Shown here one piece after another: positions 5,575 through 59,186 of a stretch of 64,000 nt of DNA; position 1 is the stretch's first letter, and every line of letters starts with the position of its first letter. The DNA comes from Candidatus Dojkabacteria bacterium (GTDB taxonomy: Bacteria; Patescibacteriota; Dojkabacteria; J137): assembly GCA_030834985.1 (NCBI GenBank), contig JAUQWV010000001.1, forward strand, positions 23,778-87,777, in the 5' to 3' direction. The translations under genes were made by a program, and so were the position numbers. The notes beneath the pieces were generated by a model. The model was not told the DNA's origin. It did no database searches and saw nothing but the letters and a program-made list of their open reading frames with translations.

Positions 5575-6062
5575 ATGCGAAGAGGGCAGCTGCAATATGC
5601 GAGCTGCCCTCTGAAACCGGGATTCTCCATTCCCGGATTGAACCTGGGGGAAGACTCCCCACAGGCGGGCCAAATATTTGACCATCGCCAGATTTGCTCG
5701 TCCCGCAGCCGGGGCGCGACCGATGCTGTTCACTCTGAGAGTGTCCAGCGCAGTGTTGTCGCGCCAATCAGGGACGCTGCGCAAATCTTACAGCCGTTGC
5801 CGGCTGTGGCTTAGGTCTCCCCGCTTACGCTCCCTGGTGGGAGCCTGGGCGGGGCTATCTTTCTTCAGAAAACCCATCCTTTTTTCCTTTCGCGAAGGTT
5901 CGCCAATAAAGGTGACCGCTGGTAGTGCCCATCGTTCTACCCTTGAGACGAGATCTCAAGCGGCTGATTACGCCACCCACCTCGGCGGTTTGGCTCGGGC
6001 TTTCCGCAGAGCCGCCTGAAAGAGCTTGAAGTTTTTATTAGAAACTCACTCAGGCGGCTCTG
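5575..6062 (-). ncRNA. rnpB: GC-rich structured non-coding RNA, most consistent with RNase P RNA (rnpB); tmRNA not excluded
   Basis: ~60% GC block in a ~33% GC genome. Only Arg-rich overlapping ORFs on both strands, none with an SD. On the minus strand, in order: hairpin cagagccgcctga..tcaggcggctctg, directly followed by GGAAAGCCCGAGCC (cf. CR-I GGAAAGUCCGGGCUCC), then GCCAAACCGCCGAGGTGG, AAGGGTAGAACGATGG (cf. CR-II AGGGUGAAANGGUG), then GCTCCCACCAGGGAGCGTAAG (cf. ACUCCACCCGGAGCAAGG). A CR-V/P4 3' strand was not found by eye. Confidence 0.45.
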
Positions 6063-43740: not shown

Positions 43741-43827
43741 TTAAGCAATAGGCGAGAGAAGTTTCCGGACGACCTTGTGTCGTCCGGACTCGCTTTAAGT
43801 AGATTTTAATTATCAAGTCTATTTAAA

Positions 43828-44130
43828 ATGAGTTTATTTAATAAATTTTTAGATATGGCAAATATCAAAGTAAATCTAAGTGATACAGCATTAAAAATGA
43901 TTGCTGTATTGGCAGTTTGTATAACAATTTTAGTATCATCTGCTCTGTTTGTTTTTAGTAGAAACGAAGACAGACGATCTGAGATTATTATAGATTGTTT
44001 TAACGTTGCTACTTATAGTGCAACTAATGAAGATAGTAAATCACAAGTAAAAGAGCCAATCCTTCGATTCTTTAAGAGCTGTATGGAGTTTAATGGTTAT
44101 GGAAGCGATTATTCTTTTTTAACTGAATAA
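43828..44130 (+). CDS. Hypothetical small membrane protein (100 aa)
   Basis: AT-rich ORF inside the island with one TM helix. Weak. Confidence 0.3.
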   Translation: MSLFNKFLDMANIKVNLSDTALKMIAVLAVCITILVSSALFVFSRNEDRRSEIIIDCFNVATYSATNEDSKSQVKEPILRFFKSCMEFNGYGSDYSFLTE

Positions 44131-44419
44131 GGTTTGATTTTGAACAAATTAAGCGCCTCGAAAGAGGCGCTTTTTTGATGCTTTTTCATCCTAAAATATG
44201 GTAAAAATCGCTAAAAATCTTGCCTGTTAAGACTTTGTGTCATCCGTAAGCTTGACGATTTGATATATCTGATATATACTGTATATGTAAGATTTCTTTA
44301 TAGAATCTACGTTCTTTAATAATACAGCAGATAACCTAGATCACGAATTTTAGGACATTTATACAATATTATTGTCTTGGAATTCGTGATTTAGGTAAGA
44401 ACTTATCTAGGAGAATAAA

Positions 44420-45397
44420 ATGCGCAAGTCACGTAAGTGGCTGTTGATCCTCCCTGTTCTCGTTTTGGCTATTGTTGTGATCGCAGTTCTGCTTCCTAAA
44501 GCTCCTGTTCTGGAAACAGTTCGGTGGGCTAGTCTGAACGACTGGGCCCCTGATGGCGCTATCAGTCGTGTAGGAGATCGCTGGTATTTTTCCAGCGGTA
44601 CCTACGGTAGAGTTTACGATCCAGACTTTGGCAGCGGGTGGAACCAAGACGTTATTGGTCCATCCAATGTACCTGAGGCGTTTGACCAAAACTACGCGGC
44701 ACCGGGTTCTGTTCTTCAGATAAATGGAAAGTGGTTTATGTTCTACCATGGTGAGAGCCATGAATGCGCAGGACATTTCCCCTTCCATGCCGGCATTGGG
44801 CTGGCAACCTCTGAAGATGGGTATTTCTGGACGCGTCAAGGTCAGATTCTTTCTACTTGGGAAGAACGTCCGACGTGTCAGGAAAACCGCGCAAGCGGTG
44901 TGGGGTATCCTAGTGCAGTCCAGCACGACGGATATATTTATCTTTACTTTGTATCTTGGACATCGGCGGAAGCCGATGCCACTCATGTGGCAAGATGCGA
45001 AGCCGAGCATATTCTCGAATCTGATTGCTGGAAGAAATATTTCCAAGGCGATTGGATGGAACCTGGCTTGGGCGGTCACAGCACTCCGGTGCTGAGTCGT
45101 TCAAGTGAAGCAGAGCTGTATTTAGCAGCTCCACAAGTTCAAATCTCTGAAGGTACTTTCTTAGGAGTGTTCGAGACCAATCTTGGGTTTGTGACCGCCA
45201 CGTCACAAGACGGTATTGTATGGTCACAACCTAAAACAATCTTTGAGTTCCCAAAACCTCATATCGAGGCGACAGGACAAGATTGGTACAGCTATCCTAC
45301 CCTGATCCGTGAAGACGGTCAGTGGTGGCTGTATATGGCTCGGCAGGACAGCAGCCTTGTGCATCACATGCACAGAATTGCTGTAACACTCCCATAA
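44420..45397 (+). CDS. Secreted hypothetical protein, possible beta-propeller glycoside-hydrolase-like fold; high-GC gene
   Basis: SD aggaga. Signal/anchor. W/Y/G-rich repeats. No firm family assignment. Confidence 0.5.
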   Translation: MRKSRKWLLILPVLVLAIVVIAVLLPKAPVLETVRWASLNDWAPDGAISRVGDRWYFSSGTYGRVYDPDFGSGWNQDVIGPSNVPEAFDQNYAAPGSVLQINGKWFMFYHGESHECAGHFPFHAGIGLATSEDGYFWTRQGQILSTWEERPTCQENRASGVGYPSAVQHDGYIYLYFVSWTSAEADATHVARCEAEHILESDCWKKYFQGDWMEPGLGGHSTPVLSRSSEAELYLAAPQVQISEGTFLGVFETNLGFVTATSQDGIVWSQPKTIFEFPKPHIEATGQDWYSYPTLIREDGQWWLYMARQDSSLVHHMHRIAVTLP

Positions 45398-45674
45398 ATC
45401 TGCTGCTTAAGCGGCGGGGCGGTGAAAACCGACCCGCCGCAAAGCTTTAATATTTTCAAACAAGGAAGCCTAATCTTTGTTTGAGCACATTAAGGCTAAG
45501 GAGGCCTATCGTGATCAAAGCACTGAAGGGCTGTTTTTGGATGGTTCTTATGACAGTCATGGCAGTTCTTATTGCTGGAATCGGAATCATTTCCGTTCTG
45601 GCGCAATCATAAATTTAAGGTGCGGGCGTTCCGCCCGCACCTTAAAGAAGCTACAATATACCAGAAAGCAGATA

Positions 45675-48600
45675 ATGAAATTCAAAAAAGTTTTAAATAA
45701 AATTAAAGATACTATTTTAGATTACAAATTTTTAATAATTCTTGTAATCATTTGGCTTTTAATCTGCTACACCAACTACACTCCAAACACGTTTATAACA
45801 GGATGGGATAATCTGCATCCAGAGTTTGATTACTCAATGAATCTAAAGCGGTTATTAACTAGTTCTTGGGCTGAATATCAAGGCTTAGGTGCTCCAGGAG
45901 CTCACTCTCATGCATCTGAAATTCCAAGAATGTTGATTATTGGAATATTGAATCTAGTATTTGAACAGCAGGCTGTGAGATATGCGTTTGTATTTGGAAC
46001 AATCATAATTGGAGTATTAGGAGTGTATTTTCTTGTTAGAAATATAATACTTAAGTATAAGAAAAAGTCCTTAAGAGATTTTTCTGCTTTTGTTGCTGCT
46101 TTATTCTATATGCTGAATATAGGGACTGTTCAGCATTATATTGCAACATTTGAAATGTTCAACATTCAATATGCGCTACTACCCTGGTTAATATATACAG
46201 CACTTAGATTCTTAGACACTAAAAGGCATAAATACCTTTTGATGTTTGGAATTATTACTTTTTTTGCCGCTCCAATGGCTTATGCAGTAATGCTTTGGCT
46301 TGCTTATTTTGCAGCACTTGCTGTATTTTTGCTTATTAATGTTATTCAAAAACGGGATATCTCGACTTTAAAATCCAGCTTTTTTCTTTTAGCATCTACT
46401 TTATTAATAAACCTATTCTGGCTTGTTCCTAACTTGTATTTTGTATTTAACCACAGTAATTATGTTCCTACTGCTAAAACAAACTTAATATTTTCGGAAG
46501 AAGCTTTTTTAACTAATCAAAAATATGGAAATTTAATCGATATCTTTTTAAATAAGGGCTTTCTGTTTGATTGGCAAATTAGGAATACAAACTATACTTT
46601 TGAACCGATAATGGGAGCTTGGGATACTCATTTAGATAATCCTTTGATTTTGGCGATTGCATTATTATGCCTAGCTTTAATAATAGCCGGAATACTTTAT
46701 GCAATCGCCAAACGCAACCGCTATTTAATTAGTATTATTGGAATCTTAATATTTTCAGTTGTTGTATTAATAGGTATAAATCCTCCGTTTACAGATCTTT
46801 GGGAATCTGTGGTTTCAAAAATTCCTGCACTACAGGAAGCAATCCGATTTCCATTTACTAAATTTTCGATCTTATTCATCTTTGCTCAGACTCTTTTGTT
46901 GTCGGGCGGCGTTTATGCGGTTTCTCAAATAATCACAAAGAAAATAAGATTTAATTATGGAGGTTTATTAGTTTTAATTGCAGTATTATTTGTTGCTTTT
47001 GTTTATTCTTTACCAACATTTCAAGGAAACTTTATTAACAAGTCTTTAAGAATAAATATTCCGCAGGATTATTTTGAATTATTTGATTACTTTAAAGATC
47101 AAGATAAAGCTACAAGAATTGCAAACTTTCCTGTAAGCAGTCTATTTGGCTGGTTTTATACAGACTGGGGTTATCAAGGTTCCGGTTTTTTGTGGTATGG
47201 AATTGAACAGCCGATTTTAGATAGAGATTTTGACCGCTGGTACACAACATTAGAAAATTACTATGATGAAATCAGCTCTGCAGTTTATACAAATAATGCT
47301 GAAAGTTTGAAAGAAGTATTGGCAAAATATGCAATTGATTGGATTGTAATTGATGAGCATGTAATGTCGTCTAGTGAAGAATCTAATATTGTATTTAACG
47401 AAAATCTTGCATCTTCAGAAATGGCGTATAAAGAAACAAAAGCTCTATTAGATCAAATTCCAGAAATTCAGCAAGCAGCAAGATTCGGGAAAATATATGT
47501 TTATAAAGTTACACTCGATTACGATCAAGAATTTGTTGAAACACTGGAAGAAGATTCTTCAGGTAAACCAATTGAAAGTAAAAGCATATTTTTAGAAGAT
47601 AACTTTGGTCGAAAAACAAATGAATCATTTTTTAGAAAGTTAAATAACGATTACTTAGTTTACAACAATACTATTTATACTCTTGATAATGAGCCTTTGA
47701 ACCTGCATATTCCTCAAATATTTGATTTGGAAACAAATATTCCTGCCACAATTAGTGCTAGAGTTAACGGTAATAATCTTGATGTAAAAATCAGTTATCA
47801 GGTACCTCGTATAGATATTAACAACAGAACATATGTAGATTACGGTAGATCAAGAATACTAAGTTTTAAATTAAATAACGTTACTGATACATACTATTTA
47901 AAAGTTGATGAACAATATATTTTAATAAATGATCCTGCAACTATCTGGCAAAGCTATGGTGTTGCCGATATTGATCTAACAAAAGATTTAAGCTTGAAGC
48001 TATATAATGCGCAAAATCCAGTTGATTTAACATCACGTTTAAATTTAGAAGACGCTCAAATTAATAATTGTGTTGGAGGAACTATTTCAAATCGATCAGG
48101 TGTTAGATTTAATAACGAGGTTTTAACTTTAAGTAGTGTGGGTGAAAACTTATGTGTTGATTTTACATTCACAACTTTGAACGCACTTGAATCTTTGTAC
48201 GAACTAAAACTGGATTATAGAAGTGATGAAGGTGTCAAAGCAGACGCATGTATAAAATTCTCTGAAGGTTGTGTTAATTCTAAGAATTTTACTAGTGATT
48301 TTATTCCAGGACTTTGGTATGAATCCTCAACATATGCATGGGACTTAAGTACAAATCGAATGGGTGTGTCTTTGATCTTGAATAACTCTGTGCCTGAAAA
48401 TCAATCTGCAATAAGCTATAGAAACATATACCTATATAGATATGCACTTGAAGATTCAAAGAGCTTAAGCATTAACGAAATTAAAAATGATATTAGAATT
48501 CAAAATACTGAACTTATTGTATTGCCAAAAAGTAATCGAATTGATGTTCAATTTACAATTCCTTGGGCAAAAAAATATGAGTTTGATTACGATATGCTAC

Positions 48601-49523
48601 AAAAAATAATTTCAGCAACTCCAAAGGATTGTAAACCTTATGTAGACAGCATAGAGATGAAAAAAGATATTGATAGAACTTCTAAAGAGATCAGATTTTC
48701 ATCAATAGATGGATTTAACTGCGAAAATATGAACCTGTACAATATTAACTTAGAGAATGGTTTTTTAATTACTGTAGAAGGCAGAAATGATACTGGTGCA
48801 GGATTAGTTTTAAATGTAAGCGATTTCTTTTATAAAAAAGTTTATTACGTAAATAGACTACCTGTGGATGGTGAATTTACAGAAGTATTAACATTACCAA
48901 ACTTAGTTAATAATCCGTCAAATGGAATAAATATCTTTGTAAATAATCAGTCGGTGGGACCAGGGCAAACTATTAATGCTCTAAAAGAGATTTCTGTTAG
49001 TCCAATAATATATAATTGGCTCTCCTCTATTAAGGTTGAAAGTGCAGATAAATTCAGTGTTATAAATAATATTAAAAATGTAAACAAGCTTAGCACTACA
49101 AGCTATAAAGTGGAGTTAAATCCTGTTTTGAAAGATGCTTTATTACAGTTTAATCAAAGTTTTGAAATTAATTGGTTAGCCTATAATCAAGAAGGTGAAT
49201 TATTACAGCGATATGGAACTGTAAATGCTAATACCGAAAAATCAGAATGGAATAATTATTGGCTGATTCCTGCTGGCACAACAACTATTTACATAGAATA
49301 TAGGACTCAAACTTATCAATACTTGGCATACTTGGTAGTAGCTTTAACTTTGTTAGCGCTAGCGGGAACAGCTTGGTATCAAAGTAGACGTGCTAAAAAT
49401 GTTCGAAAAGAAGTAGATAAAATTCTTAGAAAAATGGGTAAAAGCCAGAAATTACTGATTGAACGTAGAATTGAGCCTAGAATTGATAGATACAAGAAAT
49501 TTAATAAAAAAGATCTAAGTTAG
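45675..49523 (+). CDS. Giant (about 1280 aa) membrane protein: N-terminal ~14-TM domain + large extracytoplasmic domain + C-terminal TM
   Basis: The ORF track starts at 45477 in GC-rich leftover sequence. The likely start is ATG 45675 (MKFKKVLNK...). Confidence 0.55.
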   Translation: MKFKKVLNKIKDTILDYKFLIILVIIWLLICYTNYTPNTFITGWDNLHPEFDYSMNLKRLLTSSWAEYQGLGAPGAHSHASEIPRMLIIGILNLVFEQQAVRYAFVFGTIIIGVLGVYFLVRNIILKYKKKSLRDFSAFVAALFYMLNIGTVQHYIATFEMFNIQYALLPWLIYTALRFLDTKRHKYLLMFGIITFFAAPMAYAVMLWLAYFAALAVFLLINVIQKRDISTLKSSFFLLASTLLINLFWLVPNLYFVFNHSNYVPTAKTNLIFSEEAFLTNQKYGNLIDIFLNKGFLFDWQIRNTNYTFEPIMGAWDTHLDNPLILAIALLCLALIIAGILYAIAKRNRYLISIIGILIFSVVVLIGINPPFTDLWESVVSKIPALQEAIRFPFTKFSILFIFAQTLLLSGGVYAVSQIITKKIRFNYGGLLVLIAVLFVAFVYSLPTFQGNFINKSLRINIPQDYFELFDYFKDQDKATRIANFPVSSLFGWFYTDWGYQGSGFLWYGIEQPILDRDFDRWYTTLENYYDEISSAVYTNNAESLKEVLAKYAIDWIVIDEHVMSSSEESNIVFNENLASSEMAYKETKALLDQIPEIQQAARFGKIYVYKVTLDYDQEFVETLEEDSSGKPIESKSIFLEDNFGRKTNESFFRKLNNDYLVYNNTIYTLDNEPLNLHIPQIFDLETNIPATISARVNGNNLDVKISYQVPRIDINNRTYVDYGRSRILSFKLNNVTDTYYLKVDEQYILINDPATIWQSYGVADIDLTKDLSLKLYNAQNPVDLTSRLNLEDAQINNCVGGTISNRSGVRFNNEVLTLSSVGENLCVDFTFTTLNALESLYELKLDYRSDEGVKADACIKFSEGCVNSKNFTSDFIPGLWYESSTYAWDLSTNRMGVSLILNNSVPENQSAISYRNIYLYRYALEDSKSLSINEIKNDIRIQNTELIVLPKSNRIDVQFTIPWAKKYEFDYDMLQKIISATPKDCKPYVDSIEMKKDIDRTSKEIRFSSIDGFNCENMNLYNINLENGFLITVEGRNDTGAGLVLNVSDFFYKKVYYVNRLPVDGEFTEVLTLPNLVNNPSNGINIFVNNQSVGPGQTINALKEISVSPIIYNWLSSIKVESADKFSVINNIKNVNKLSTTSYKVELNPVLKDALLQFNQSFEINWLAYNQEGELLQRYGTVNANTEKSEWNNYWLIPAGTTTIYIEYRTQTYQYLAYLVVALTLLALAGTAWYQSRRAKNVRKEVDKILRKMGKSQKLLIERRIEPRIDRYKKFNKKDLS

Positions 49524-49630
49524 CGCTGAATTATTCAGGTTCTTATCTGCGCTCAGAGGCATTAAAGTTTATAGACTTGAGACTTTCCTTTTGATATAAT
49601 TCAGCGCTATTCAACATAGCAAGGCCATTC

Positions 49631-49707
49631 AGGCCCCATCGTCTAGCGGTCTAGGACATTGCCTTTTCAAGGCAGTAACCGGGGTTCGAGTCCCCGTGGG
49701 GTCACCA
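49631..49707 (+). tRNA. tRNA-Glu (anticodon UUC), CCA encoded
   Basis: Hand-folded. Acceptor GGCCCCA/TGGGGTC. D-arm TCGTCTAGCGGTCTAGGAC (Glu-type). Anticodon loop TTTTCAA. T-arm GGGG TTCGAGT CCCC. ACCA 3' end. Confidence 0.85.
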
Positions 49708-51166
49708 TTATAGAATTTTCACCACCTAATTCTTCATTAAGCAATGCAGGTAATGGTCTTGTATCAGTTGTAAATTCACCATCTTTAAATATTAAACCGC
49801 TAGGAAATAGCCATTTTTGCAACTTATTTTGTATCTCAACTTCTGTATTTTCCCATGCACCACTTAAATTTGTTAAGAAATTAATGCTGTAATCCATCAA
49901 TTCCTGCTCATCTGCTTCAGGTTGATTATATTTTAATAATTCCATTCTAATCCCTGCAATTTCGCTTTCTAATTGGCTTATTTTTGTTCTTGCAACCTCA
50001 TCACTGATTACTCCTTCAATATTTTTGTCAATAACTGAATTTTGTTTATGTTTCAATTCATTTAATTGGTTCTCTAAAATTAGCCTTTCCTTTTTTATTT
50101 CTGCTGTTTCCTGCTCCCAGTTTAATTTGATTGCTGTTTTAATCACATTTGCAATGTTCTCATCTAACCTAATAGTTTCAAGGTAATCTTTAAATCTGGA
50201 TTCAACATAGTCCTTTTTGATATTTACACCCTTACAGTTAGTGCATCTATAATGTCCATATTTCTTTTTAGCCCAATTGCCTGTCATGGTTTTTCTGCAA
50301 TTTCCACATTTCACAATACCTCTTAATGGAAAATCTGGATTCACTTTTTTATAAATCGGGAGCTTTTTAGATTTACCATTTAATACAAATTGTACTTGGT
50401 CAAATACTTCTGGTTCTACAATTGCTTCAAAATTGCCCTTTTGATAAATGCTCATTTTAGGAATGTTAATGTATCCTTTATAAATGGGATTCTTTAACAT
50501 CTTGTAAAAGTGGGATTTAGTTAATGCTTTCCCGTCATTTCTAACTACTCCGATTTGTTTAGCTTTTTGCCTTACTTCTTCTAAACTTCTGTGACCTTCT
50601 AGCACCAAGTTAAAAACTTCCTTTATTTTAGGTGCTAATAATTGATTTGGGACTATATTTGATGTTCCTCTTCCTCCAACCCTATCAAATCCATAAGGCT
50701 CTTTAAAAGTGTATCTACCGTCTTTTAAAGCTTCAATCATTCCATTTCTACTTCTTTCACCCCTTACCTCATTATCAAATTGAGCGATTCCAGCCAACAT
50801 TGTCTCAACAAGTCTGCCTACAGGATTATCTTCAATAGCTTCTGTTATAGATATTACTTTTACTCCACACTGATAAAAATAAGCTTTTAAAGTTGCATAA
50901 TCTACAGATGCTCTTGATAGCCTATCTATTTTATAAATTAGCAATGAATCAATCTCGCCTTGATGGTCTTTGCAGTATTTCATCATTTCCTGCAATTTTG
51001 TTCTACTTATTGTTTTTGCACTTTCTCCTTCTTCAATAAATACTTCTACAATCTCAAGTCCTTCTTTTTGTGCATAAAGCCTGCAAAGCCTCTCCTGTGT
51101 TTTTAAGCTATTACCATCATCAGCCTGTTCTTGTGTTGATACTCTACAATATATTATTCCTTTCAT
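49667..51166 (-). CDS. Large serine recombinase (phage-type serine integrase)
   Basis: N-terminal resolvase catalytic domain (YCRVSTQEQ, Ser nucleophile). Recombinase domain, zinc ribbon (CGNC...C.NC) and coiled-coil. Last 41 nt overlap tRNA-Glu. Confidence 0.85.
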   Translation of the reverse strand: MKGIIYCRVSTQEQADDGNSLKTQERLCRLYAQKEGLEIVEVFIEEGESAKTISRTKLQEMMKYCKDHQGEIDSLLIYKIDRLSRASVDYATLKAYFYQCGVKVISITEAIEDNPVGRLVETMLAGIAQFDNEVRGERSRNGMIEALKDGRYTFKEPYGFDRVGGRGTSNIVPNQLLAPKIKEVFNLVLEGHRSLEEVRQKAKQIGVVRNDGKALTKSHFYKMLKNPIYKGYINIPKMSIYQKGNFEAIVEPEVFDQVQFVLNGKSKKLPIYKKVNPDFPLRGIVKCGNCRKTMTGNWAKKKYGHYRCTNCKGVNIKKDYVESRFKDYLETIRLDENIANVIKTAIKLNWEQETAEIKKERLILENQLNELKHKQNSVIDKNIEGVISDEVARTKISQLESEIAGIRMELLKYNQPEADEQELMDYSINFLTNLSGAWENTEVEIQNKLQKWLFPSGLIFKDGEFTTDTRPLPALLNEELGGENSIMVTPRGLEPRLLP

Positions 51167-51318
51167 TTGTTTTTCTTGTATAACAAATAGGCTTCCATCA
51201 CTATTCTGGCAAACATATCTATTTCATCCACCAGCTTTTCAATTAGAAATTTATCTTCAATTCCTAACGCTCTTATCTCTTTTTCTAAGAGTTTTCTTTT
51301 TTTGTCTTCCTGACTCAT
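51163..51318 (-). CDS. Small ORF (51 aa) overlapping the integrase start (TGA/ATG overlap); possible directionality factor/regulator
   Basis: Found manually; it is below the ORF-track cutoff. MSQEDKKRKLLEKEIRALG.... Confidence 0.35.
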   Translation of the reverse strand: MSQEDKKRKLLEKEIRALGIEDKFLIEKLVDEIDMFARIVMEAYLLYKKNK

Positions 51319-51411
51319 AGCTAAAACAATAAATTGCTTTAGCCTGAGTGCCTCTCAGCGCATCTGCTTGTAATTAAATAATCTATATTCCTGCCGTTTC
51401 TAGCTCAGAAT

Positions 51412-52233
51412 TTAGATTTTATAAACATCTTCCAATTTATAACTAACAATTTTGCCGTCTCTCTTTGTTATTTTTATATTAGTAAAATCTTTCTCTTTCA
51501 TTGATTCTATTAGCTCAATTTCAGTCATACCTTCAGTATTCTTTTCAAGTTCTCCATAAACATTAAATGTATTTTTATCTTTCTTCTTTATTGTGACTAA
51601 TGAGTAATTCTTATTCCTTAAAATATCTAATATTTCATTTTCTTTGTCAGATACTTTAGAACTTTGGGAGAAGTTAGCCATCAGTTCTACTAGATTATTA
51701 TGGCTTGGGAATTTAGAGTCTTCACCTTTTGTGAGTTTCCACACTTTCCTTACTATTTCATTAAAATTTATTAATGTATAGGAATGGTAATTTGAATCAA
51801 CAACAGTTTGATAACCAGTATCAACAAACCAAGATCTACCATCTGCAGTGAGAATAAGGGAGATTTTCACAGTACCCAAAACTAGAAGTAAAACATGGTC
51901 AACATCAGAAAACTTGGCGGTTCCTTTATTATGTTTATAAAAATCATCCCTAAGTTCTTGAAGTAAATCATTTTCAATTCCGTATTTTCTAAATTCAAGA
52001 ATTGTATATAGATACACCAGGTCTTTAAAACTAAATTTACGCCAACCTCTTTCATTTTCTCTCTCATCTTGAAGCATCGCACTTGCTCCTAGCGAGTTTA
52101 TTTGTCTATAGCTTAATGTTGAGTCTTTGACAGTATACTTTTTCTCACTTAATTTCTTATTTAGTTGTAATTTCACATCATCATTGCTATTGATGTAATA
52201 CCCAACCATTAATGATTCCGATATTAAAATCAT
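51412..52233 (-). CDS. MerR-type HTH protein with ~170-aa C-terminal domain of unknown function
   Basis: N-terminal YTVKDSTLSYRQINSLG...ENERGWRKFSFKDLVYLYTILEFRKYG matches the MerR HTH/wing pattern. Confidence 0.5.
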   Translation of the reverse strand: MILISESLMVGYYINSNDDVKLQLNKKLSEKKYTVKDSTLSYRQINSLGASAMLQDERENERGWRKFSFKDLVYLYTILEFRKYGIENDLLQELRDDFYKHNKGTAKFSDVDHVLLLVLGTVKISLILTADGRSWFVDTGYQTVVDSNYHSYTLINFNEIVRKVWKLTKGEDSKFPSHNNLVELMANFSQSSKVSDKENEILDILRNKNYSLVTIKKKDKNTFNVYGELEKNTEGMTEIELIESMKEKDFTNIKITKRDGKIVSYKLEDVYKI

Positions 52234-52304
52234 AAAACTATACTTACATGTATAATTTTATTTTATAAGGATTAAATTGAACTGTCAAGTATAATTTGAG
52301 GGAA

Positions 52305-53291
52305 TTAAAGTTTGCTTAAATCTTCTTTAATTTTTTTTGCAATATGTTTAGCAAATTCAACAGGTACAGCATTCCCGATCATCTTATATCCATCTGCAAT
52401 ATTGGTATATTTAAAGACAAAATCATCTGGAAATGTTTGGATTCTTGCGCATTCTCTAACTGAAAGTCTCCTATACAAGTCTTCTTTCCCAGGTACAAAA
52501 ATTCTTTTATTTTGCTCTACAAAAAGCATTTTAGGAGCTTGGGGATGTATTGGAGCATGTCTTCCACCAGCCTGGATAGTAAATGATGGTTCATCCCAAC
52601 TCCTAACCCTATTTCTTGACATGTACATTGTTGAGAATCCACCTGTCATGTATTCATGATTTGTAATACTTAATTCTTCTCCATTTGTCTTGTTGAAACT
52701 CAATGCAGGTTTGGGAGCTGGCAAGTCGCCAATTGCATCTTTTAAATTAAGTTTTTTATCCAATGGTTTTGGAAATTCAAATTTAAATCCGACTTTCTTC
52801 TTATGGAATCCTACAATAATTACTCTTTGTCTATCTTCAGGGACTCCATAATCATTAGCATTTAAAAGATCAAAACTAATATGATAGCCAGCATCTTCAA
52901 ACTCTTTAATTATTGCTGTAAAGGCTTCTTTATGCCTAATTGATAATATTCCAGATACATTTTCTGCAAGAAAGAATAGAGGTTGTTTATCTTTTAAAAC
53001 TCTGATGTATTCATAAAATAATTGACCTCTTTTATCATTTATTCCTCTTCCTGCACCTGCTTCACTCCAGCTTTGACAAGGTGGTCCTCCTACAATTCCT
53101 TCTGCTTCAGGAATATCTTCATTTGGTACATCAACAATGCTTCTCTTATCTAATTTTGTTTCTGGAAAATTTGCTTCAAATGTACTCCAGATAGTTTTAT
53201 CATATTCATTTGCCCATACAATATTAAATCCTGCTTTTTTAAAACCAAGATCAAGACCACCAGCACCTGTAAAAAGTGATACAACTTTCAT
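52305..53291 (-). CDS. DNA (cytosine-5)-methyltransferase
   Basis: Motif I FTGAGG, motif IV PPCQ, motif VI ENV. Confidence 0.9.
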   Translation of the reverse strand: MKVVSLFTGAGGLDLGFKKAGFNIVWANEYDKTIWSTFEANFPETKLDKRSIVDVPNEDIPEAEGIVGGPPCQSWSEAGAGRGINDKRGQLFYEYIRVLKDKQPLFFLAENVSGILSIRHKEAFTAIIKEFEDAGYHISFDLLNANDYGVPEDRQRVIIVGFHKKKVGFKFEFPKPLDKKLNLKDAIGDLPAPKPALSFNKTNGEELSITNHEYMTGGFSTMYMSRNRVRSWDEPSFTIQAGGRHAPIHPQAPKMLFVEQNKRIFVPGKEDLYRRLSVRECARIQTFPDDFVFKYTNIADGYKMIGNAVPVEFAKHIAKKIKEDLSKL

Positions 53292-53292
53292 G

Positions 53293-54135
53293 TTAGATTC
53301 TAAAACTTAAAACTTTTGCATCAAGAAGATTAGCGGGATTATTTGGAGATTTAATTTTTACATCTTTGATCTCCAATTTATTCTCAATATTCTTTCTATC
53401 ACTTTCTGGGAATGATTCATATTTTGTCTTAAGCATTATTGCATTAACAACTAAATCATTATCTACTTGAGAAGGAATTACATAGTTAAATACTCGGTGC
53501 GGATTTTCAATTCCCCACATTCCTCTAACTCTTAAGTAAGTTATACCCAACGGGTCAACTCTGTTGACTCTTGCTAATTCATTAGTTTCTCCAAATTCTA
53601 CATCTTTTAATTCATTTAATCCTTGAGAAATTTTATTGCTAATTCGCTCATAGACTTCTTTATTTGCAGCATAACAATCTCCATAAACAAACCAAAGTTT
53701 TTTCAACTTTGAATCTTTAATCACTCCAACAACATACAATAAATCTTTTTCGGTCCAGTTTTCAGCAGTTCTGCACGCATTTGTTATCATTGGGCTGTCT
53801 GCATACAATTTATCTTTAGGATATGAGCTGTTCAATGCTATACCAGAGTTTACCCCTTCAATTTTTTTAACTTCAATTGCATCTCCACCTCTTATCATTA
53901 CATCTGGTGGATTATTTTGATTGCCAATGTATGAAAAATATTGACTGTGGGTTAATATTTTGTTTTCAATATTTGAATCAGATTCTCCAACAGTATTGCA
54001 AAATAAATCTCTAACATAATATTCTAAAGCCTCACCAACATTATTAATTCTATTGCTTGAATTGTAAGTTGCAAGTATATCTGTGATAGGATTTTGAACT
54101 AAGTTTGATAAAGCAACTAAAAGGTTGGTTTCCAT
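53293..54135 (-). CDS. Putative Type II restriction endonuclease (PD-(D/E)XK) cognate to the adjacent MTase
   Basis: PDVMI...GDAIEVKK matches PD-x(n)-(D/E)-x-K. 1-nt spacing to the MTase gene on the same strand. Confidence 0.55.
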   Translation of the reverse strand: METNLLVALSNLVQNPITDILATYNSSNRINNVGEALEYYVRDLFCNTVGESDSNIENKILTHSQYFSYIGNQNNPPDVMIRGGDAIEVKKIEGVNSGIALNSSYPKDKLYADSPMITNACRTAENWTEKDLLYVVGVIKDSKLKKLWFVYGDCYAANKEVYERISNKISQGLNELKDVEFGETNELARVNRVDPLGITYLRVRGMWGIENPHRVFNYVIPSQVDNDLVVNAIMLKTKYESFPESDRKNIENKLEIKDVKIKSPNNPANLLDAKVLSFRI

Positions 54136-54195
54136 ATATTTATATATTAAATGGGTTAAATCTCTAAATAATATACTACGGGTATGCCACTTTTC

Positions 54196-54606
54196 TCAAA
54201 CCTTATTTTCACTTAAGGCTCTAAACTCTTCCTGGCTATATTTTGGTTCAACAATTTCTATAATGTATTTTGATATAGGTTCTTTTTGATTCTCATCTTC
54301 CTTGTTGAACTGTGCCTTACTCACATGTCTGTCAACCCAATCTAATAGGAATTTATCACTTTTTAAACCTTTTGAAACATACTTAATTGCCATAACATCT
54401 CTGATTGTATATTTAGCTTTTGATTTTTCTGCCTCTTTTTCTATTCTCTCAAATTCTTCTAATGATAATTCTTGATATTCCATTACTTTATCCATAAACG
54501 CCTGTGCAGATTTTTTTCTTTTCCACCCTTCCGACTTAGCCTCACCACTTGGTTGGTTATTAGAATTAAATTGTGTATTTTCCCCGTTTTTAACGCCGTT
54601 TTTCAT
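54196..54606 (-). CDS. Hypothetical protein (136 aa), downstream partner of a coupled gene pair
   Basis: ATGA start/stop overlap with the upstream gene. Basic N-terminus (GWKRKKSAQA). No recognisable family. Confidence 0.45.
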   Translation of the reverse strand: MKNGVKNGENTQFNSNNQPSGEAKSEGWKRKKSAQAFMDKVMEYQELSLEEFERIEKEAEKSKAKYTIRDVMAIKYVSKGLKSDKFLLDWVDRHVSKAQFNKEDENQKEPISKYIIEIVEPKYSQEEFRALSENKV

Positions 54607-55238
54607 TTACTTTTAATAAATTTAATTGCTTCTTTTATTTTTTCATCAGTGTACTCATTATTTTCTAAATCTGTGATAATCTGTTTTCTAATTTCCATTG
54701 TCCAATACCAAAGTACATCACAATTCACCCATAAAACATCTTTACTATCAAAACTAAAAGGGTTTTGCTTTTCTGTTATTATTTTATTCTGTAATTCAAT
54801 ATAAGTGCTTGCCTCATCTGGAACTATCTTGGCTTTAGGAAATGCTACATGAATCAATCTATGTCTTATTCTCTTCCAAAATTCTAAAATTTGTTTATCG
54901 CTATAATTCCAATTATTCACTTTAGCTCTTAAAAGTTTTTGTATTGCATCAGTTTCATTTATGTCACCCTGACTATTCATGCACACTTTATCTGCGAGTA
55001 TCACATAAGTCTTAGCAATTAAACCTAAAACAGTTACAGATATTAGTGCGATTGCAAGATTACCACCACCTAAACTATTCTCCTCCATAAATTTTTTACC
55101 ATCGGTTCTTAAAAACTGAAAAGTTCTTACATCTCCTGTATAAATTGTAAACTCATCTTTTAAAGGTTTTTCACCTTTCATTATTTCTATTAAAATTTCT
55201 CTATCTGACATATTTGAAAAAAACTTAATTATTATCAA
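54603..55238 (-). CDS. Hypothetical protein (211 aa) with a possible HEPN-like R-x4-6-H motif (RIRHRLIH)
   Basis: ORF with one hydrophobic segment. R-x4-6-H motif noted. First gene of the coupled pair. Confidence 0.45.
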   Translation of the reverse strand: MIIIKFFSNMSDREILIEIMKGEKPLKDEFTIYTGDVRTFQFLRTDGKKFMEENSLGGGNLAIALISVTVLGLIAKTYVILADKVCMNSQGDINETDAIQKLLRAKVNNWNYSDKQILEFWKRIRHRLIHVAFPKAKIVPDEASTYIELQNKIITEKQNPFSFDSKDVLWVNCDVLWYWTMEIRKQIITDLENNEYTDEKIKEAIKFIKSK

Positions 55239-55433
55239 TTATAATACTTGTGTACCTCTTTAGTTGTATTACTAGTAGGTATTAAGATTGATAAATGTAG
55301 ATTGAAGATTAAAAGCTTTTATTAAAGAACCTAATTCTGTTAAGCTTTCAATGGCTGAGTTGTAAAATGGTTTCTTTAGGGTCAAATTTTTCCTCTAATT
55401 TACATAACGATATTCAAGTGCTACTATTAAGTT

Positions 55434-55784
55434 ATGGATATCACTCTTAAGCGCGCATACGAAGCTACAGCGCTCACTGATGGTTATCGGGTATTGGTTG
55501 ATCGTTTATGGCCACGAGGTATTTCTAAAAAGGATATTAATATCGATGAGTGGTGTAAAGATGTTGCACCAAGTATGAAGCTTCGTAAATGGTTTGCTCA
55601 TGATCCTGCTAAATTTGCAGAATTCACTAAGCGCTATCTTACGGAATTAAAATCTTCAGATGCTGCACAGCAATTAATAAAACGTGCTAAAGCTAAAGAT
55701 AAGCATTTAACGCTTGTTTTTGCAGCAAGAGATCCGAATGTAAACCATGTAGTTGTGCTTAAGCAATATTTAGAATCTCTCTAA
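55434..55784 (+). CDS. DUF488 (YeaO-like) family protein
   Basis: Near-identical block to E. coli YeaO (DGYRVLVDRLWPRGI.K.D...EW.K...PS..LRKWF). Confidence 0.75.
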   Translation: MDITLKRAYEATALTDGYRVLVDRLWPRGISKKDINIDEWCKDVAPSMKLRKWFAHDPAKFAEFTKRYLTELKSSDAAQQLIKRAKAKDKHLTLVFAARDPNVNHVVVLKQYLESL

Positions 55785-55815
55785 TCTTCACTGATTCTAG
55801 GTTTATAATACGTGT

Positions 55816-56676
55816 GTGAATGAAATCGAACTACACAACTATAATTTAGAAAAAACTCTTTTAGGCGGTCAAAGCTTCAATTGGGATTTAATTGATGGAA
55901 CGTTTTACGGCTTTTTTGTAGATAAAGTTGTAAAACTCAAGCAAGAAGAAAACAAACTATACTGGCAGACTTATCCTGAAAAAGATAATTTTGACTTTAT
56001 AAAGCAATATCTAAGACTTGGCGTTGATTACAACAAGATACTTACTCAAATCAACAAGGATGAATGGGTAGATGCTTCTATAAAAAAATATCCAAACTTA
56101 AGAATTCTAAAACAAGATTTTGATCAGACTTTAATTTCGTATATTATATCGGCCAACAATAATATCAATTCAATAAGAAGGATTGTGCGGAATCTTTCAC
56201 GAAGTTTAGGTAAGCAAGTTACTGTTGATAATCTCACTTTTAATTTATTCCCAAGTGTTGAAAGTATTGCACAAGCTCCACTAGAAACCTTGTTGGAAAC
56301 AAAAGCTGGTTACAGAGCAAGATATCTTAAAGATTCCGCACAAAAGTTATTTGTAGAAGGTCAAAAACTATCAAATAATGAAGATGAGATTATTAAATGG
56401 TTATTAGAATTTCCAGGTATTGGTGAAAAAGTTGCAGATGCAATTCTTCAATATTCGTTAGGATTTGATAATGTAACACCTTTAGATGTTTGGGTACAAA
56501 GGATACTGATAGATTTATATTTAGTAGATTCAAAAGCTAACTACAAAAAGATGAGAGCATGGCTTCAAAGTTATTTTAATGGCTATGCTGGCTGGGCTGG
56601 TCAGTTTTTGTACGAATACTATAGAAATGAGTATAAGTTTATTAAATCGAAATCACTTGTTGGCAGTGATAATTAA
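55816..56676 (+). CDS. ogg: 8-oxoguanine DNA glycosylase (OGG-type, HhH-GPD)
   Basis: N-terminal GQSFNW. HhH motif EFPGIGEKVADAIL, followed by the catalytic Asp region PLDVW. Confidence 0.7.
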   Translation: MNEIELHNYNLEKTLLGGQSFNWDLIDGTFYGFFVDKVVKLKQEENKLYWQTYPEKDNFDFIKQYLRLGVDYNKILTQINKDEWVDASIKKYPNLRILKQDFDQTLISYIISANNNINSIRRIVRNLSRSLGKQVTVDNLTFNLFPSVESIAQAPLETLLETKAGYRARYLKDSAQKLFVEGQKLSNNEDEIIKWLLEFPGIGEKVADAILQYSLGFDNVTPLDVWVQRILIDLYLVDSKANYKKMRAWLQSYFNGYAGWAGQFLYEYYRNEYKFIKSKSLVGSDN

Positions 56677-58151
56677 TTAAAATTACTTAACCAGTAGCTT
56701 GCTAAAATACTTAAATCAGAAATATTCACTACTCCATCATTATTTGTATCTGCAACAGAATTATTTTGCCCCCAATAAGTAGCTAAGATACTAAGGTCAG
56801 AAAGATTTATAATGCTGTCATTATTAAAGTCGCCTTTATTTTTGTGTGATACAGGCGGCACTCCGCAAGATCTTGTTAAATTAGGAGTGCCGCCTGTACA
56901 GCCATAAGGATTTGAAGTCAACACAGTTCGCGATTCTATTCCTCCTAAACAACTACCCCACTCCGAGTATGTAAAACTTTGGCAGGTTGTATTTACTTCA
57001 CCAGGATCTGAAGAATATTGAACAAAATTTATAGATTCGTAAGGATTCAGTAAATATGTCCACCAATTATTTTCGATTAATAACGGTTCGTTACTTCCAT
57101 TATGCAAAATTGTTTGACCGCTATTAGCTGGAATAAATCCAAACCAATATTCCTGCCACCCCGGATCATCACAACCCCATACTGCGCATCCTACATTAGT
57201 TGTTGCACCGTTAAAATTTGGAAAATTTGCCCAATCTGGGCAAATCGAAACCGCTGGTGTGGGATTCCCATAATCGTAATCAAATCTAAAGTTTTTAGGA
57301 AAGTGACCATTTCCACATCCTAAAGGCTGACCATCAAACCCCATAAATCTTCTCCAATAATTATTTGATTCTGAAGCAATAATATTAGAAAAGAGATACA
57401 CAATATTAGATTCTATTCTGTGAGAAAAATTATGAAGAAGATTTTCAGGCCTATCATATGTTGGCCCCATCACCGGATAAAGTTTTTCGCAGTTTAAATT
57501 AATTTCATTTCCTCCATTAATAAAATAAGCGTTAATGGGGCCAACAAAAAGACTTTCCCATTTACCAATAAATGGTGGAGTCAGCATCCATATCTCATCT
57601 ACATCATACATACTTGCTACATCACAAATATTGTAATCATCAAAAAATTTTGTATAACTAAACTGCCATTTTCTTTCATCACAGTATGCTGCTTGTTCAG
57701 GAGTAGCTCCGCCTGCACATGGAGCGTAAGTATCCATATTAAAGACAGGTTGACCATTAGGTAGTAAAGGAAATGTATCGATATTTAAATGATGAACAAT
57801 CTCATATTGAATTTTCCCATCTGATAATCTTTCAAACGCTTCTACTGCTCTATCAAATGTAGCTTCTTCAATTTGCTCGTGATTACCAAAAAATTTCTCA
57901 ACTAAAGTTTCTTCATCTTCCTCAGGATTAACTCCGATTGTTAAAACCTTTAAATTAAAAACATCTGTACTTGTGCCTAATATATTGGAATTATCTTGAG
58001 TAGTTATAGATGAACGCTGAGTTGTTGTAGATAATGAATATAAATTTACGAGTATTGTAATACCCAATAATGCTAAGGTGATAGAAATCAAGCTATATAC
58101 TCTACTCATATATGTACATTTTAATCTATAACGCGCTAAGATATAATACAA
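56673..58151 (-). CDS. Secreted protein with C-terminal type-I dockerin-like tandem repeats
   Basis: GDFNNDSIINLSDLSILATYW and DTNNDGVVNISDLSILASYW match the Dx[DN]xDGx[IV]Nx2Dx3L dockerin EF-hand pattern. Signal anchor near the N-terminus. Confidence 0.6.
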   Translation of the reverse strand: MYYILARYRLKCTYMSRVYSLISITLALLGITILVNLYSLSTTTQRSSITTQDNSNILGTSTDVFNLKVLTIGVNPEEDEETLVEKFFGNHEQIEEATFDRAVEAFERLSDGKIQYEIVHHLNIDTFPLLPNGQPVFNMDTYAPCAGGATPEQAAYCDERKWQFSYTKFFDDYNICDVASMYDVDEIWMLTPPFIGKWESLFVGPINAYFINGGNEINLNCEKLYPVMGPTYDRPENLLHNFSHRIESNIVYLFSNIIASESNNYWRRFMGFDGQPLGCGNGHFPKNFRFDYDYGNPTPAVSICPDWANFPNFNGATTNVGCAVWGCDDPGWQEYWFGFIPANSGQTILHNGSNEPLLIENNWWTYLLNPYESINFVQYSSDPGEVNTTCQSFTYSEWGSCLGGIESRTVLTSNPYGCTGGTPNLTRSCGVPPVSHKNKGDFNNDSIINLSDLSILATYWGQNNSVADTNNDGVVNISDLSILASYWLSNFN

Positions 58152-58179
58152 ATATATTCTGTAGAGTAAATAAATTCCA

Positions 58180-58704
58180 ATGATAGAAACACATCCTTTT
58201 CAAAGTTTTATACCAAAAGATATTAAATATTTGCTGTTGGGTAGTTTTGCTTCAAAACAACTTATTAGAGATAAAGGTTATGATTGGTTTTATGGCACCA
58301 AAAGAAATCAACTTTGGCCAATTATAAGTAAGGTTTATGAATTATCCTTAGAAAGTAAAGAAGATAGAAAGAAATTGTTTACAAGTTTAGGGATAGGAAT
58401 AGCAGATATTATTTATCAATGTGAAAGATCAAATGATAATAGTTCTGATAATAATTTAATAAATATTGTTTACAATCCTCAACTAAACGATATTGTTAGC
58501 ACTAATCATCTTAATACAATCTTTTTTACAAGTAGGTTTGTAGAAAACCTATACAAGAAAGCGTTTAAGAATTTAGTTACAGAGTTTCCTGAGGTAAATC
58601 TTGTAACTTTGCCATCTCCTTCACCTAGATATGCACTATTGACTATGGAACAAAAAGTTCAAAGGTATAAAGAGCTTTTGCCGAGTGGTTTGATATATTC
58701 TTAA
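58180..58704 (+). CDS. Uracil-DNA glycosylase superfamily protein (Mug/TDG-like)
   Basis: LLLGSF..., N/Q..LWP, and LPSPSPRYA resemble Mug motifs (GINPG / LPNPSGLS). Confidence 0.5.
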   Translation: MIETHPFQSFIPKDIKYLLLGSFASKQLIRDKGYDWFYGTKRNQLWPIISKVYELSLESKEDRKKLFTSLGIGIADIIYQCERSNDNSSDNNLINIVYNPQLNDIVSTNHLNTIFFTSRFVENLYKKAFKNLVTEFPEVNLVTLPSPSPRYALLTMEQKVQRYKELLPSGLIYS

Positions 58705-58752
58705 TTCTCTGCGACAATAAATAATAATTCATTATTTTTTAACGAAAAATGT

Positions 58753-59088
58753 ATGGCATACGATGAAGCATTAGCAGGACGAGTAAGATCAATACTAAGC
58801 TCTAGAAACGGAGTTGGTGAAAGATCTCTTTTTGGCGGATTAACTTTTAGCATTAATGGAAACATGGTAGCTAGCGTGAATAGCCGTGGTCTTACTTTGA
58901 GTGTTGGAAAAGAAAATTATGAAAAAGCTTTAGGAATGTCAGGTGTTAAGAAGGTGATGATGGGTGAAAAACCAATGCCTAATGTTGTAATGGCTGAAGA
59001 TCCATCTAATATTAGTAATGAAGATTTAAATATATGGGTAAATATGGCAGCAGATGCTGCGGCAGCAAAACCACCGAAGGTAAAATAA
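58753..59088 (+). CDS. TfoX/Sxy N-terminal domain protein
   Basis: ERSLFGGLTFSINGNMVASV matches the TfoX_N core. Confidence 0.5.
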   Translation: MAYDEALAGRVRSILSSRNGVGERSLFGGLTFSINGNMVASVNSRGLTLSVGKENYEKALGMSGVKKVMMGEKPMPNVVMAEDPSNISNEDLNIWVNMAADAAAAKPPKVK

Positions 59089-59186
59089 ATTGAGTTTATA
59101 GAATAGAGTTTTAAGCCGCCCCGAAGCTTCGGGGCGGCTTAATTGTTCCTCTGATGTTATTATGTAACTAGTTATCATTTTTTCTT

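Follow-up and report, generated by a model that had tools for sequence, protein, structure and literature searches.

A large serine recombinase island at the 3' end of a tRNA-Glu gene in Candidatus Dojkabacteria, with an attachment site apparently placed in the integrase reading frame

The tRNA-Glu locus and its empty site

The window analysed here, a stretch of 64,000 nucleotides from the chromosome of a Candidatus Dojkabacteria bacterium (Patescibacteria), contains a gene for tRNA-Glu(UUC) into which the gene of a large serine recombinase (LSR), hereafter int, runs in antisense orientation. The recombinase gene opens an island whose open reading frames (ORFs) all lie on the minus strand. The tRNA gene carries an encoded CCA end (49705-49707), and its T-loop, TTCGAGT, occupies positions 49685-49691. 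The overlap of int with the tRNA amounts to 41 nt, the C-terminal codons ..ENSIMVTPRGLEPRLLP* being the reverse complement of tRNA positions 49667-49707. That the recombinase ORF enters the tRNA had been noticed in an earlier reading of the letters alone (hereafter, the original prediction), and the results from ARAGORN, Rfam, ORF listing and Pfam agree.

Inspection of the window by itself gives little indication of where the island ends. The GC content is 0.30-0.33 both within the island and outside it, so that base composition is no marker. With up to 3 mismatches in 40 nt allowed, the tRNA 3' half does not occur a second time in the window, and a search of the window for direct and inverted repeats yielded nothing useful. 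The original prediction had likewise seen no attR-like repeat of the tRNA 3' half. The two ends share only the 6-bp sequence GGGTCA, which escaped the repeat searches because it is too short to be detected without comparison to other loci.

Such a comparison is provided by the closest homologue of the integrase (P0001, 98% amino acid identity), which is encoded on contig L001 beside tRNA-Glu(CUC), among other flanking genes and with a cargo consisting of an EcoRII-type restriction-modification (R-M) system and Vsr. The window and L001 are similar at the DNA level over the int module (window 51465-49632, 95.5%) and over 122 bp at the far end of the island (window 55384-55263, 95%), and the similarity stops on either side at a common block, TGACCC(TA), which is GGGTCA on the plus strand of the window. 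The empty site was predicted from this comparison as ...CCCCGTGGGGTCA|AATTTTTCC....

Same-species contigs were then retrieved through an exact match to the DUF488 protein that flanks the island, and two of them, L090 and L091, match the predicted empty site exactly. In both, the site reads ...CCCCGTGGGGTCA|AATTTTT, the CCA is not encoded, and the tRNA is joined directly to the DUF488 flank; the flanks are 97-100% identical to the window and exactly 5,680 bp are absent. By blastn, L091 3979-9951 corresponds to window 43742-49704 and L091 9946-13707 to window 55379-59140. The two segments are contiguous with an overlap of 6 bp, and the insertion is therefore 5,680 bp long and flanked by a duplicated GGGTCA. 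By the convention adopted here the left copy is counted as host and the right copy as element, and host DNA starts again at 55385 (AATTTTTCC...). The sequence of the empty attB is ..GGTTCGAGTCCCCGTGGGGTCAAATTTTTCCTCTAATTTAC...

Host DNA runs unbroken through the tRNA to the discriminator (49704), and the body of the tRNA is therefore host DNA to which the element adds the CCA only. Codons ~1-489 of int belong to the element, and the final ~10 codons with the stop (49667-49701) are antisense tRNA and thus host DNA. The original prediction of an integrated, LSR-borne element at tRNA-Glu is supported by the empty site in the same species, which it had named as something to look for in relatives, and its right boundary of ~55433, drawn from gene content, was nearly right, the true boundary being 55384. 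Its proposal of a tRNA 3' end contributed by the element does not hold: the identity with the empty site extends through the tRNA to 49704, only GGGTCA is duplicated, and the ~10 antisense codons are attB DNA that recombination has fused to int. At the level of sequence, comparison between contigs establishes the boundaries and the empty site, as it does the att-site architecture and the family-wide pattern set out below, and by the same measure the island is precisely delimited and recently mobile.

The integrase, its attachment sites and its relatives

The domain content of the integrase is that of an LSR, with Pfam matches to Resolvase (PF00239, 3.8e-34, residues 4-152), Recombinase (PF07508, 3.4e-11) and Zn_ribbon_recom (PF13408, 7.8e-9) and a match to PHROG 95, 'integrase' (2e-93). 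The catalytic motif is YCRVSTQEQ, and residues Y6, R8, S10, R82 and R85 are invariant in an alignment of 25 sequences. The cysteines of the zinc ribbon are present in the translation as CGNC...CTNC (CxxC...CxxC), and in the AlphaFold model of a relative, P0008 (53% identical), the ribbon is followed by long helices at 339-386 and 392-416. Solved LSR structures are remote, the best match being the N-terminal domain of TP901-1 (E=4e-13). The enzyme appears full-length, with its domains and catalytic residues present, in keeping with the original prediction, in which the catalytic Ser region was seen to be intact. The assignment to the LSRs rests on domain content together with the logic of the att sites, and the 499-residue protein would be expected to catalyse recombination.

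When the ends of the element are joined, the reconstructed attP reads ..GAAAATTCTATAATGGTGACCCTAAAGAAACCATTTTACAAC.., and the int frame continues across it. After ..ENSIMV it remains open for 35 codons, T-LKKPFYNSAIESLTELGSLIKAFNLQSTFINLNTY*, to give a predicted integrase of 524 residues in the excised form. At this base composition 35 codons would stay open by chance with a probability of ~0.05, and stronger evidence comes from comparison with relatives. The reconstructed attP thus lies inside the integrase ORF, as in the SSV1-type integrases, and reads in frame into a conserved helix.

This helix was recognised among relatives. A protein search returned 754 homologues at E<=1e-20, and the tails of the best 120 were examined. 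Antisense tRNA T-arm peptides, for example ..VTPRGIEPRLPG and ..VDPTGLEPATSSVQMRRSTR, terminate 82 of these, and the remaining 38 have, for the most part, a conserved amphipathic helix at the C-terminus, with the approximate pattern x-W-N/E-Q-h-x-x-E-h-x-x-L-x-x-h-h. Near-identical pairs such as P0004 and P0005 part ways directly after S-x-M-V. A position-specific scoring matrix was built from 27 free-form tails, the window being excluded, and was used to scan the upstream flanks of integrated loci with a hit defined as >=9 bits. There were 13 hits on the int strand versus 3 on the opposite strand, and for 11 of the 13 a block of 6-13 nt located 15-22 nt upstream matches the tRNA 3' end without a difference and lies in the int frame (binomial p=2e-4). 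The loci that support a helix at the far end are L029, L044, L048 (twice), L051, L054, L058, L067, L001 and the window, with elements of 3.8-11.5 kb. The far-end segment of the window was found independently of the matrix; scored on helix positions 4-15 alone, which lie outside a canonical 50-bp attP, it reaches 10.6, a value attained by none of 97,260 null windows.

The distribution of the two tails follows the source of the sequences. Among complete ORFs on IMG/VR viral contigs the helix type accounts for 13 of 16 and the tRNA type for 3 of 16, versus 13 of 74 and 61 of 74, respectively, in genomes (Fisher p=2e-6); the tRNA tail is therefore associated with integration, and the helix form with elements that are not integrated. 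In the AlphaFold model of P0008, which is of the free form, the crossover falls in a low-confidence linker (487-495) between the last helix associated with the zinc-ribbon domain (ZD) and the terminal helix (495-523).

Some of the sequence conservation in this region has a counterpart in the tRNA. The M/L-V codons correspond to CCA and the discriminator, and an Asn 8 residues past the Val of S-x-M-V corresponds to AAC, so that part of the apparent conservation of the integrase tail is DNA mimicry of the tRNA. In long-linker relatives the x-N site stands apart from the helix and both are retained; the helix is therefore a constraint at the level of the protein.

The geometry of the att sites was examined in nine junction pairs aligned on the tRNA 3' end. 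Their shared blocks intersect at offsets 3-5, which are the discriminator, nt 72 and nt 71, and the core dinucleotide is most likely TC at 49702-49703 (tRNA nt 71-72), within 1 nt either way. In the P' arm the sequence T-GG-AAC (codons W-N), which is TAC-AAC in the window, spans offsets +23 to +28, and in the tRNA arm the T-loop complement TCGAAC spans +18 to +23. This places the TACAAC of the window attP 5 bp further from the core than the TCGAAC of the tRNA. When the arms of the nine pairs were slid against each other, 73 of 108 positions matched at a shift of +5 and no more than 46 at any other shift, in a tally in which the row for the window was 1 nt out of register. The sites of serine integrases have as their signature a ZD motif that is nearer the centre in attB than in attP, by 5 bp (Rutherford et al. 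2013, PMC3783163), and the best shift of +5 agrees with this rule.

The same layout recurs widely. In a set of 80 loci taken from GTDB species genomes, the ORF enters an antisense tRNA from its 3' end in 57, and the ORF-into-tRNA arrangement is, on this evidence, not a product of chance. The 57 loci involve tRNAs of 11 types (Glu 26, Ala 10, Leu 9, Arg 3, Ser 3, and one each of Lys, Asn, Gly, Gln, Ile and His); the remainder of the set comprises 4 tRNA-like tails at contig ends, 6 that run off the contig and ~13 tails of the helix type. The hosts represent about a dozen phyla, among them several lineages of Patescibacteria, Acidobacteriota, Myxococcota, Verrucomicrobiota, Planctomycetota and Armatimonadota. 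These enzymes appear to form a widespread and apparently undescribed clade of LSRs that would target tRNA 3' ends with attP in the int frame.

In a more distant subgroup (~30% identity; L063, L065, L066, L068-L071, L073, L076, L079 and L080), with tails like ..ISPFYRSF..GADERT*, the ORFs likewise run into antisense tRNAs (Leu, Glu, Arg, Ala). Their overlaps are shorter, 20-22 nt in most, and use other frames, which suggests a slightly different register of the crossover. Integration at the window locus converts a CCA-less tRNA-Glu gene to one that encodes its CCA (window 49705-49707, L091 9946-9955), and the junction reads TGG, the complement of CCA, in 42 of the 57 relatives as well. The gained CCA could conceivably alter the route of 3' maturation of the tRNA. 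At a tRNA-Ala(GGC) locus (L048) a single integrase has upstream of it two attR-like far ends (1852-1870 and 2680-2690), separated by 828 bp and both containing a helix-coding segment; this may be the remnant of a second element.

Interpretation, alternatives and known systems

The island was very probably inserted into the Dojkabacteria chromosome by its own LSR, through recombination of attB with an attP that lies in the int frame. In this scheme attB would consist of the 3' end of tRNA-Glu(UUC) and the downstream flank, with the crossover within GGGTCA and with one half-site formed by the T-arm and acceptor end of the tRNA. The attP would imitate this half-site twice, by an identical block at the acceptor/CCA end and by a T-loop-like motif 5 bp further out, and would be placed in the linker ahead of the conserved C-terminal amphipathic helix. 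Integration would keep the tRNA intact and now CCA-encoding, would fuse int to ~10 antisense-tRNA codons, and would strand the helix-coding segment at the opposite end of the element; the 524-residue integrase would be regained upon excision. The core module would be made up of a MerR-type regulator, the ~51-residue protein and int, with an NgoPII-type R-M system as cargo.

The 41-nt overlap of int and tRNA is typical of tyrosine-integrase islands and recalls the classical tRNA island, in which attP carries the tRNA 3' half, the element supplies it and the displaced host fragment is left at the far end. Yet the window holds no second tRNA 3' half, the far end having only GGGTCA in common with the tRNA, and the empty-site contigs are identical to the window through the whole tRNA to 49704. 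The tRNA of L001, moreover, differs beyond the shared block despite an integrase that is 98% identical, which shows that the tRNA portion is not carried along when the element moves. The classical model is refuted by the L001 comparison and the empty-site contigs, and we consider it almost certainly wrong for this locus. It is only a little less improbable that the LSR is a passenger and that the island was placed by homologous recombination in a variable hot spot, or by an unseen tyrosine integrase. Unrelated islands do occupy the same attB elsewhere (L087-L089), as in a general hot spot, but the island is without another recombinase, the insertion is precise with its 6-bp duplication, and the junction between LSR and tRNA 3' end recurs across phyla in 57 of the 80 relatives with the crossover in the int frame.

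A more serious alternative accepts insertion by the LSR and takes the island to be a fixed remnant that no longer excises, the int::tRNA fusion being a dead end and the C-terminal swap a neutral by-product. Neither an attP junction nor a free-form protein of the window element was found in public data, the conservation of M/L-V and W/Y-N is partly forced by DNA mimicry of the CCA/discriminator and T-loop, and AlphaFold does not dock the helix with confidence, all of which would fit such a remnant. Several observations speak against this alternative: int is full-length with its catalytic residues intact, a near-identical module stands at another tRNA gene with other cargo (L001), and empty and occupied sites coexist within one species. 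The helix pattern, furthermore, exceeds the att site and is in frame and open at the far ends of elements in distant phyla, and in long-linker relatives the helix is conserved despite its separation from the DNA motif. We regard a fixed remnant as a real possibility, though a doubtful one.

Several findings weigh against insertion by the LSR at an attP in the int frame, or against its details. The window and L001 do not share the same non-tRNA half of attB, which is unusual, since LSRs normally read both half-sites. The excised attP junction of the window element (TCTATAATGGTGACCCTAAAGAAACC) was not found in JGI metagenome contigs or IMG/VR viral contigs, and the ~524-residue form is absent from the 90% cluster of the window integrase; present-day excision is therefore a possibility only. 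The core is not uniquely fixed, as a secondary junction, L048a (one of ten pairs), conflicts with offsets 4-5. At the correct register the P' arm of the window is also best at +5, with a weak T-loop match at 5 of 12 positions. The terminal helix of P0008 has a predicted local distance difference test (pLDDT) score of 50-63 and is not confidently placed, so that no docking site can be claimed. Some relatives carry an intact, helix-type (attP-containing) ORF inside large chromosomal contigs (L019, of 2.26 Mb, and L059); the simple model predicts a split ORF upon integration and leaves these unexplained. Nor does it explain contig L086, on which attP and an unoccupied attB lie 2 kb apart.

Further intact helix-type ORFs in large chromosomal contigs are seen at L050 and at L010, L011, L016, L017, L024 and L027, including long-linker forms from Bacteroidota. 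The 7.5-kb contig L086 holds a free-form int with intact attP together with a CCA-less tRNA-Glu(UUC) (3790-3830 and 5936-6007). The tRNA 3' end has 11 nt (TGACCCTACCG) in common with attP in direct orientation, a 74-residue ORF, a HIT-family gene, a 95-residue ORF and a DUF7347 gene lie between the two, and one attP x attB event would yield the usual fusion. Related elements with intact attP are also present at L002-L005 and at viral loci. No terminal overlap indicative of circularity was found in L002, L004 or L086.

It is possible that the exchange of the integrase C-terminus serves as a built-in sensor of state, the free integrase with its helix being competent for integration and the integrated form lacking the helix, but we consider this rather unlikely. 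If it did, the small protein encoded upstream could occupy the vacated surface and license excision, and directionality would be written into the position of the att site itself. In a weaker variant, the swap and the convergent transcription of the tRNA could tune the expression or stability of int after integration. That the C-terminal swap has a function at all we hold to be just as tentative and improbable.

The principal tools for integrating DNA in one direction are serine integrases. The natural targets of LSRs are thought to be protein-coding or intergenic, and tRNA genes are regarded as the domain of tyrosine integrases. In the archaeal tyrosine integrases of the SSV1 type, attP lies inside int and integration into a tRNA gene partitions int. 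These are the closest conceptual analogue of the window system, by analogy rather than membership: both have attP within the integrase gene, a tRNA target, and a gene that is altered by integration and would be restored by excision. They differ in enzyme family and chemistry, tyrosine versus serine, which are unrelated, and in outcome, the SSV1 int being split into two large parts and inactivated, whereas the window int exchanges only its last ~35 codons and keeps its catalytic and DNA-binding domains intact. The tyrosine-integrase islands of the Islander type resemble the window island in their use of the tRNA 3' region, a functional tRNA, an int gene beside the tRNA and accessory or defence cargo. 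Here, in contrast, the enzyme is a serine recombinase, the repeat has 6 bp instead of tens, no fragment of the tRNA is displaced, and element DNA does not rebuild the tRNA body.

The LSRs of phages and other elements (A118/LI Int, phiC31, Bxb1, TP901-1, SPbeta SprA and SCCmec Ccr) share with the window integrase the resolvase and recombinase domains, a zinc ribbon with a coiled-coil insertion, short att sites, a small duplicated core and a ZD-type motif 5 bp further out in attP (PMC3783163). Like SCCmec Ccr at rlmH, the window integrase has as its target the extreme 3' end of a conserved gene that is not inactivated. Unlike these enzymes it targets a tRNA 3' end, and its attP lies in the int ORF, with the result that the C-terminus would differ between the free and integrated states. 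According to Mageeney et al. (2020, PMC7192596), no serine integrase had been reported to use a t(m)RNA gene; they found 14 such candidates among 297 and said that these need proof. In the LSR survey of Durrant et al. (PMC10083194) attB sites were grouped by the protein-coding genes that they disrupt, and the word tRNA is absent from the main text.

The tycheposons of Prochlorococcus (bioRxiv 10.1101/2020.12.28.424599) are likewise small, cargo-carrying integrative elements at tRNA genes. They mostly have tyrosine recombinases and partial tRNA repeats, unlike the window island, and many carry replication genes, of which none was seen in the window island. The elements that lack a tyrosine recombinase, about 27 of 937, have an LSR, and the passages of the preprint that were searched contain no attP within an ORF, C-terminal swap or att-site detail for these elements. 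A search of open-access papers and preprints, which was not exhaustive, found no description of an attP inside an LSR gene or of tRNA-end-targeting LSRs of this kind.

The exact empty site, with ~60 independent relatives, points to a large and phylogenetically broad clade of LSRs that would read the T-arm and acceptor end of tRNAs and cross over in the final base pairs of the acceptor stem. Such a clade would account for many annotations in which a recombinase ORF overlaps a tRNA in Patescibacteria, Acidobacteriota and other phyla, and would offer a natural set of LSRs for relating half-site specificity to a universally conserved nucleic-acid motif. It may also provide a testable case in which integration rewrites the C-terminus of the integrase, with a bearing on the control of directionality. 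The island, finally, illustrates how defence genes, R-M among them, move in Patescibacteria, a group about whose mobile elements little is known.

Cargo, site occupancy and neighbouring genes

The features of the island and its target gene are collected in Table 1. A survey of the island ORFs by Pfam revealed no recombinase besides the LSR.

Table 1. Coordinates of the tRNA gene, the island and its parts in the window, with the source of each assignment
Feature	Position	Strand	Basis
tRNA-Glu(UUC)	49632..49707	+	ARAGORN; Rfam RF00005, 59.6 bits
LSR gene, integrated (attL) form, 499 aa	49667..51166	-	ORF listing, Pfam, PHROG
Left GGGTCA copy, tRNA nt 68-73 (acceptor 3' strand and discriminator)	49699..49704		alignments to L001, L091
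Integrated element, 5,680 bp	49705..55384		blastn vs empty-site contig L091
51-aa ORF, ATGA overlap (4 nt) with int start	51163..51318	-	small helical protein family
273-aa MerR-type DNA-binding protein with extra C-terminal domain	51412..52233	-	Pfam MerR_1 E=0.0033 (below cut-off), Foldseek
C5-cytosine DNA methyltransferase, Type II, Dcm-type	52305..53291	-	PF00145 1.9e-97; PADLOC MTase_II 2.4e-115; TIGR00675
NgoPII-family Type II restriction endonuclease	53293..54135	-	PF09521 4.4e-109; PADLOC REase_II 2.2e-113
136-aa ORF, no family match	54196..54606	-	DNA 76% identical to L001 cargo
211-aa ORF, no family match	54603..55238	-	ORF listing
P' arm of attP and orphan coding segment	55272..55384	-	translation; 95% identity to L001 far end (55263-55384)
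Right GGGTCA copy (attR core)	55379..55384		alignments to L001, L091

The 51-residue protein belongs to a recurrent arrangement, as 44 of 94 loci have a small helical ORF, with the recurrent motif ..L..LA.I(L/V)..Y, whose end coincides with the int start or lies close to it. LSRs need a directionality factor for attL x attR recombination, and the 51-residue protein is a candidate for this role or for that of a regulator. The small upstream proteins outscore 60-residue windows of ordinary proteins on the matrix of the integrase C-terminal helix (Mann-Whitney p=3e-6). The likeness of their own C-terminal helix to the terminal helix of the integrase is suggestive, and could also reflect a generic amphipathic signal. 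The 51-, 136- and 211-residue proteins have no match in Pfam, PHROGs, PADLOC or NCBIfam.

The fold of the 273-residue protein was modelled by AlphaFold (pLDDT 69), and the top Foldseek match was to CvkR (PDB code: 7xn2; probability 1.0, E=8e-3), a MerR-type repressor from a CRISPR-associated transposon. CvkR is the best fold match for the N-terminal ~150 residues, and both proteins are MerR-type regulators carried on mobile elements, but the identity is 16%, the model is of moderate quality and the C-terminal domain is without a match. The protein has only 10 detectable homologues, and a MerR-like pattern is seen at the N-terminus in an alignment. With counterparts at the same position in L001 (281 residues), L002 (269) and L086 (276), the protein appears to be a conserved core gene of related elements.

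The genes for the methylase and the endonuclease are adjacent, 1 nt apart, in the arrangement of an NgoPII-like Type II R-M system. The specificity of NgoPII is GGCC.

The same attB holds other islands in other samples of the same species (L087-L089 and L092), and the site (window 49699-49707 and 55379-55390) is a hot spot for defence islands. No tblastn match to the window integrase was found in the same-site islands L087 and L089. The island of L087 and L088 encodes a small resolvase, a 279-residue protein, an HTH_17/MerR protein, an MmeI-like type IIG R-M enzyme and two AAA_15 ATPases, and its right junction reads ..CATTATGGTCA|AAT. That of L089 and L092 carries a CBASS-like pair, SAVED-Mrr and SMODS, with ..CTGTGGGGTCA|AAT at the right junction. 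A further contig, L093, begins exactly at GGGTCA.

Two genes to the left of the tRNA merit mention. A 325-residue gene (window 44420-45397) has a GC content of ~50% in a genome of ~30% GC, and seems to have been acquired from a foreign donor with a higher GC content. Its product has an N-terminus resembling a signal anchor and a weak match to DUF4185 (E=1.5e-4, below the cut-off), and the gene is present in the empty-site strains too. Between it and the tRNA lies a mechanically called ORF of 1348 residues that starts from TTG (window 45477-49523); as a point of annotation only, the calls on sister contigs are of 1282 residues, which would fit an internal ATG (MKFKKVL...).

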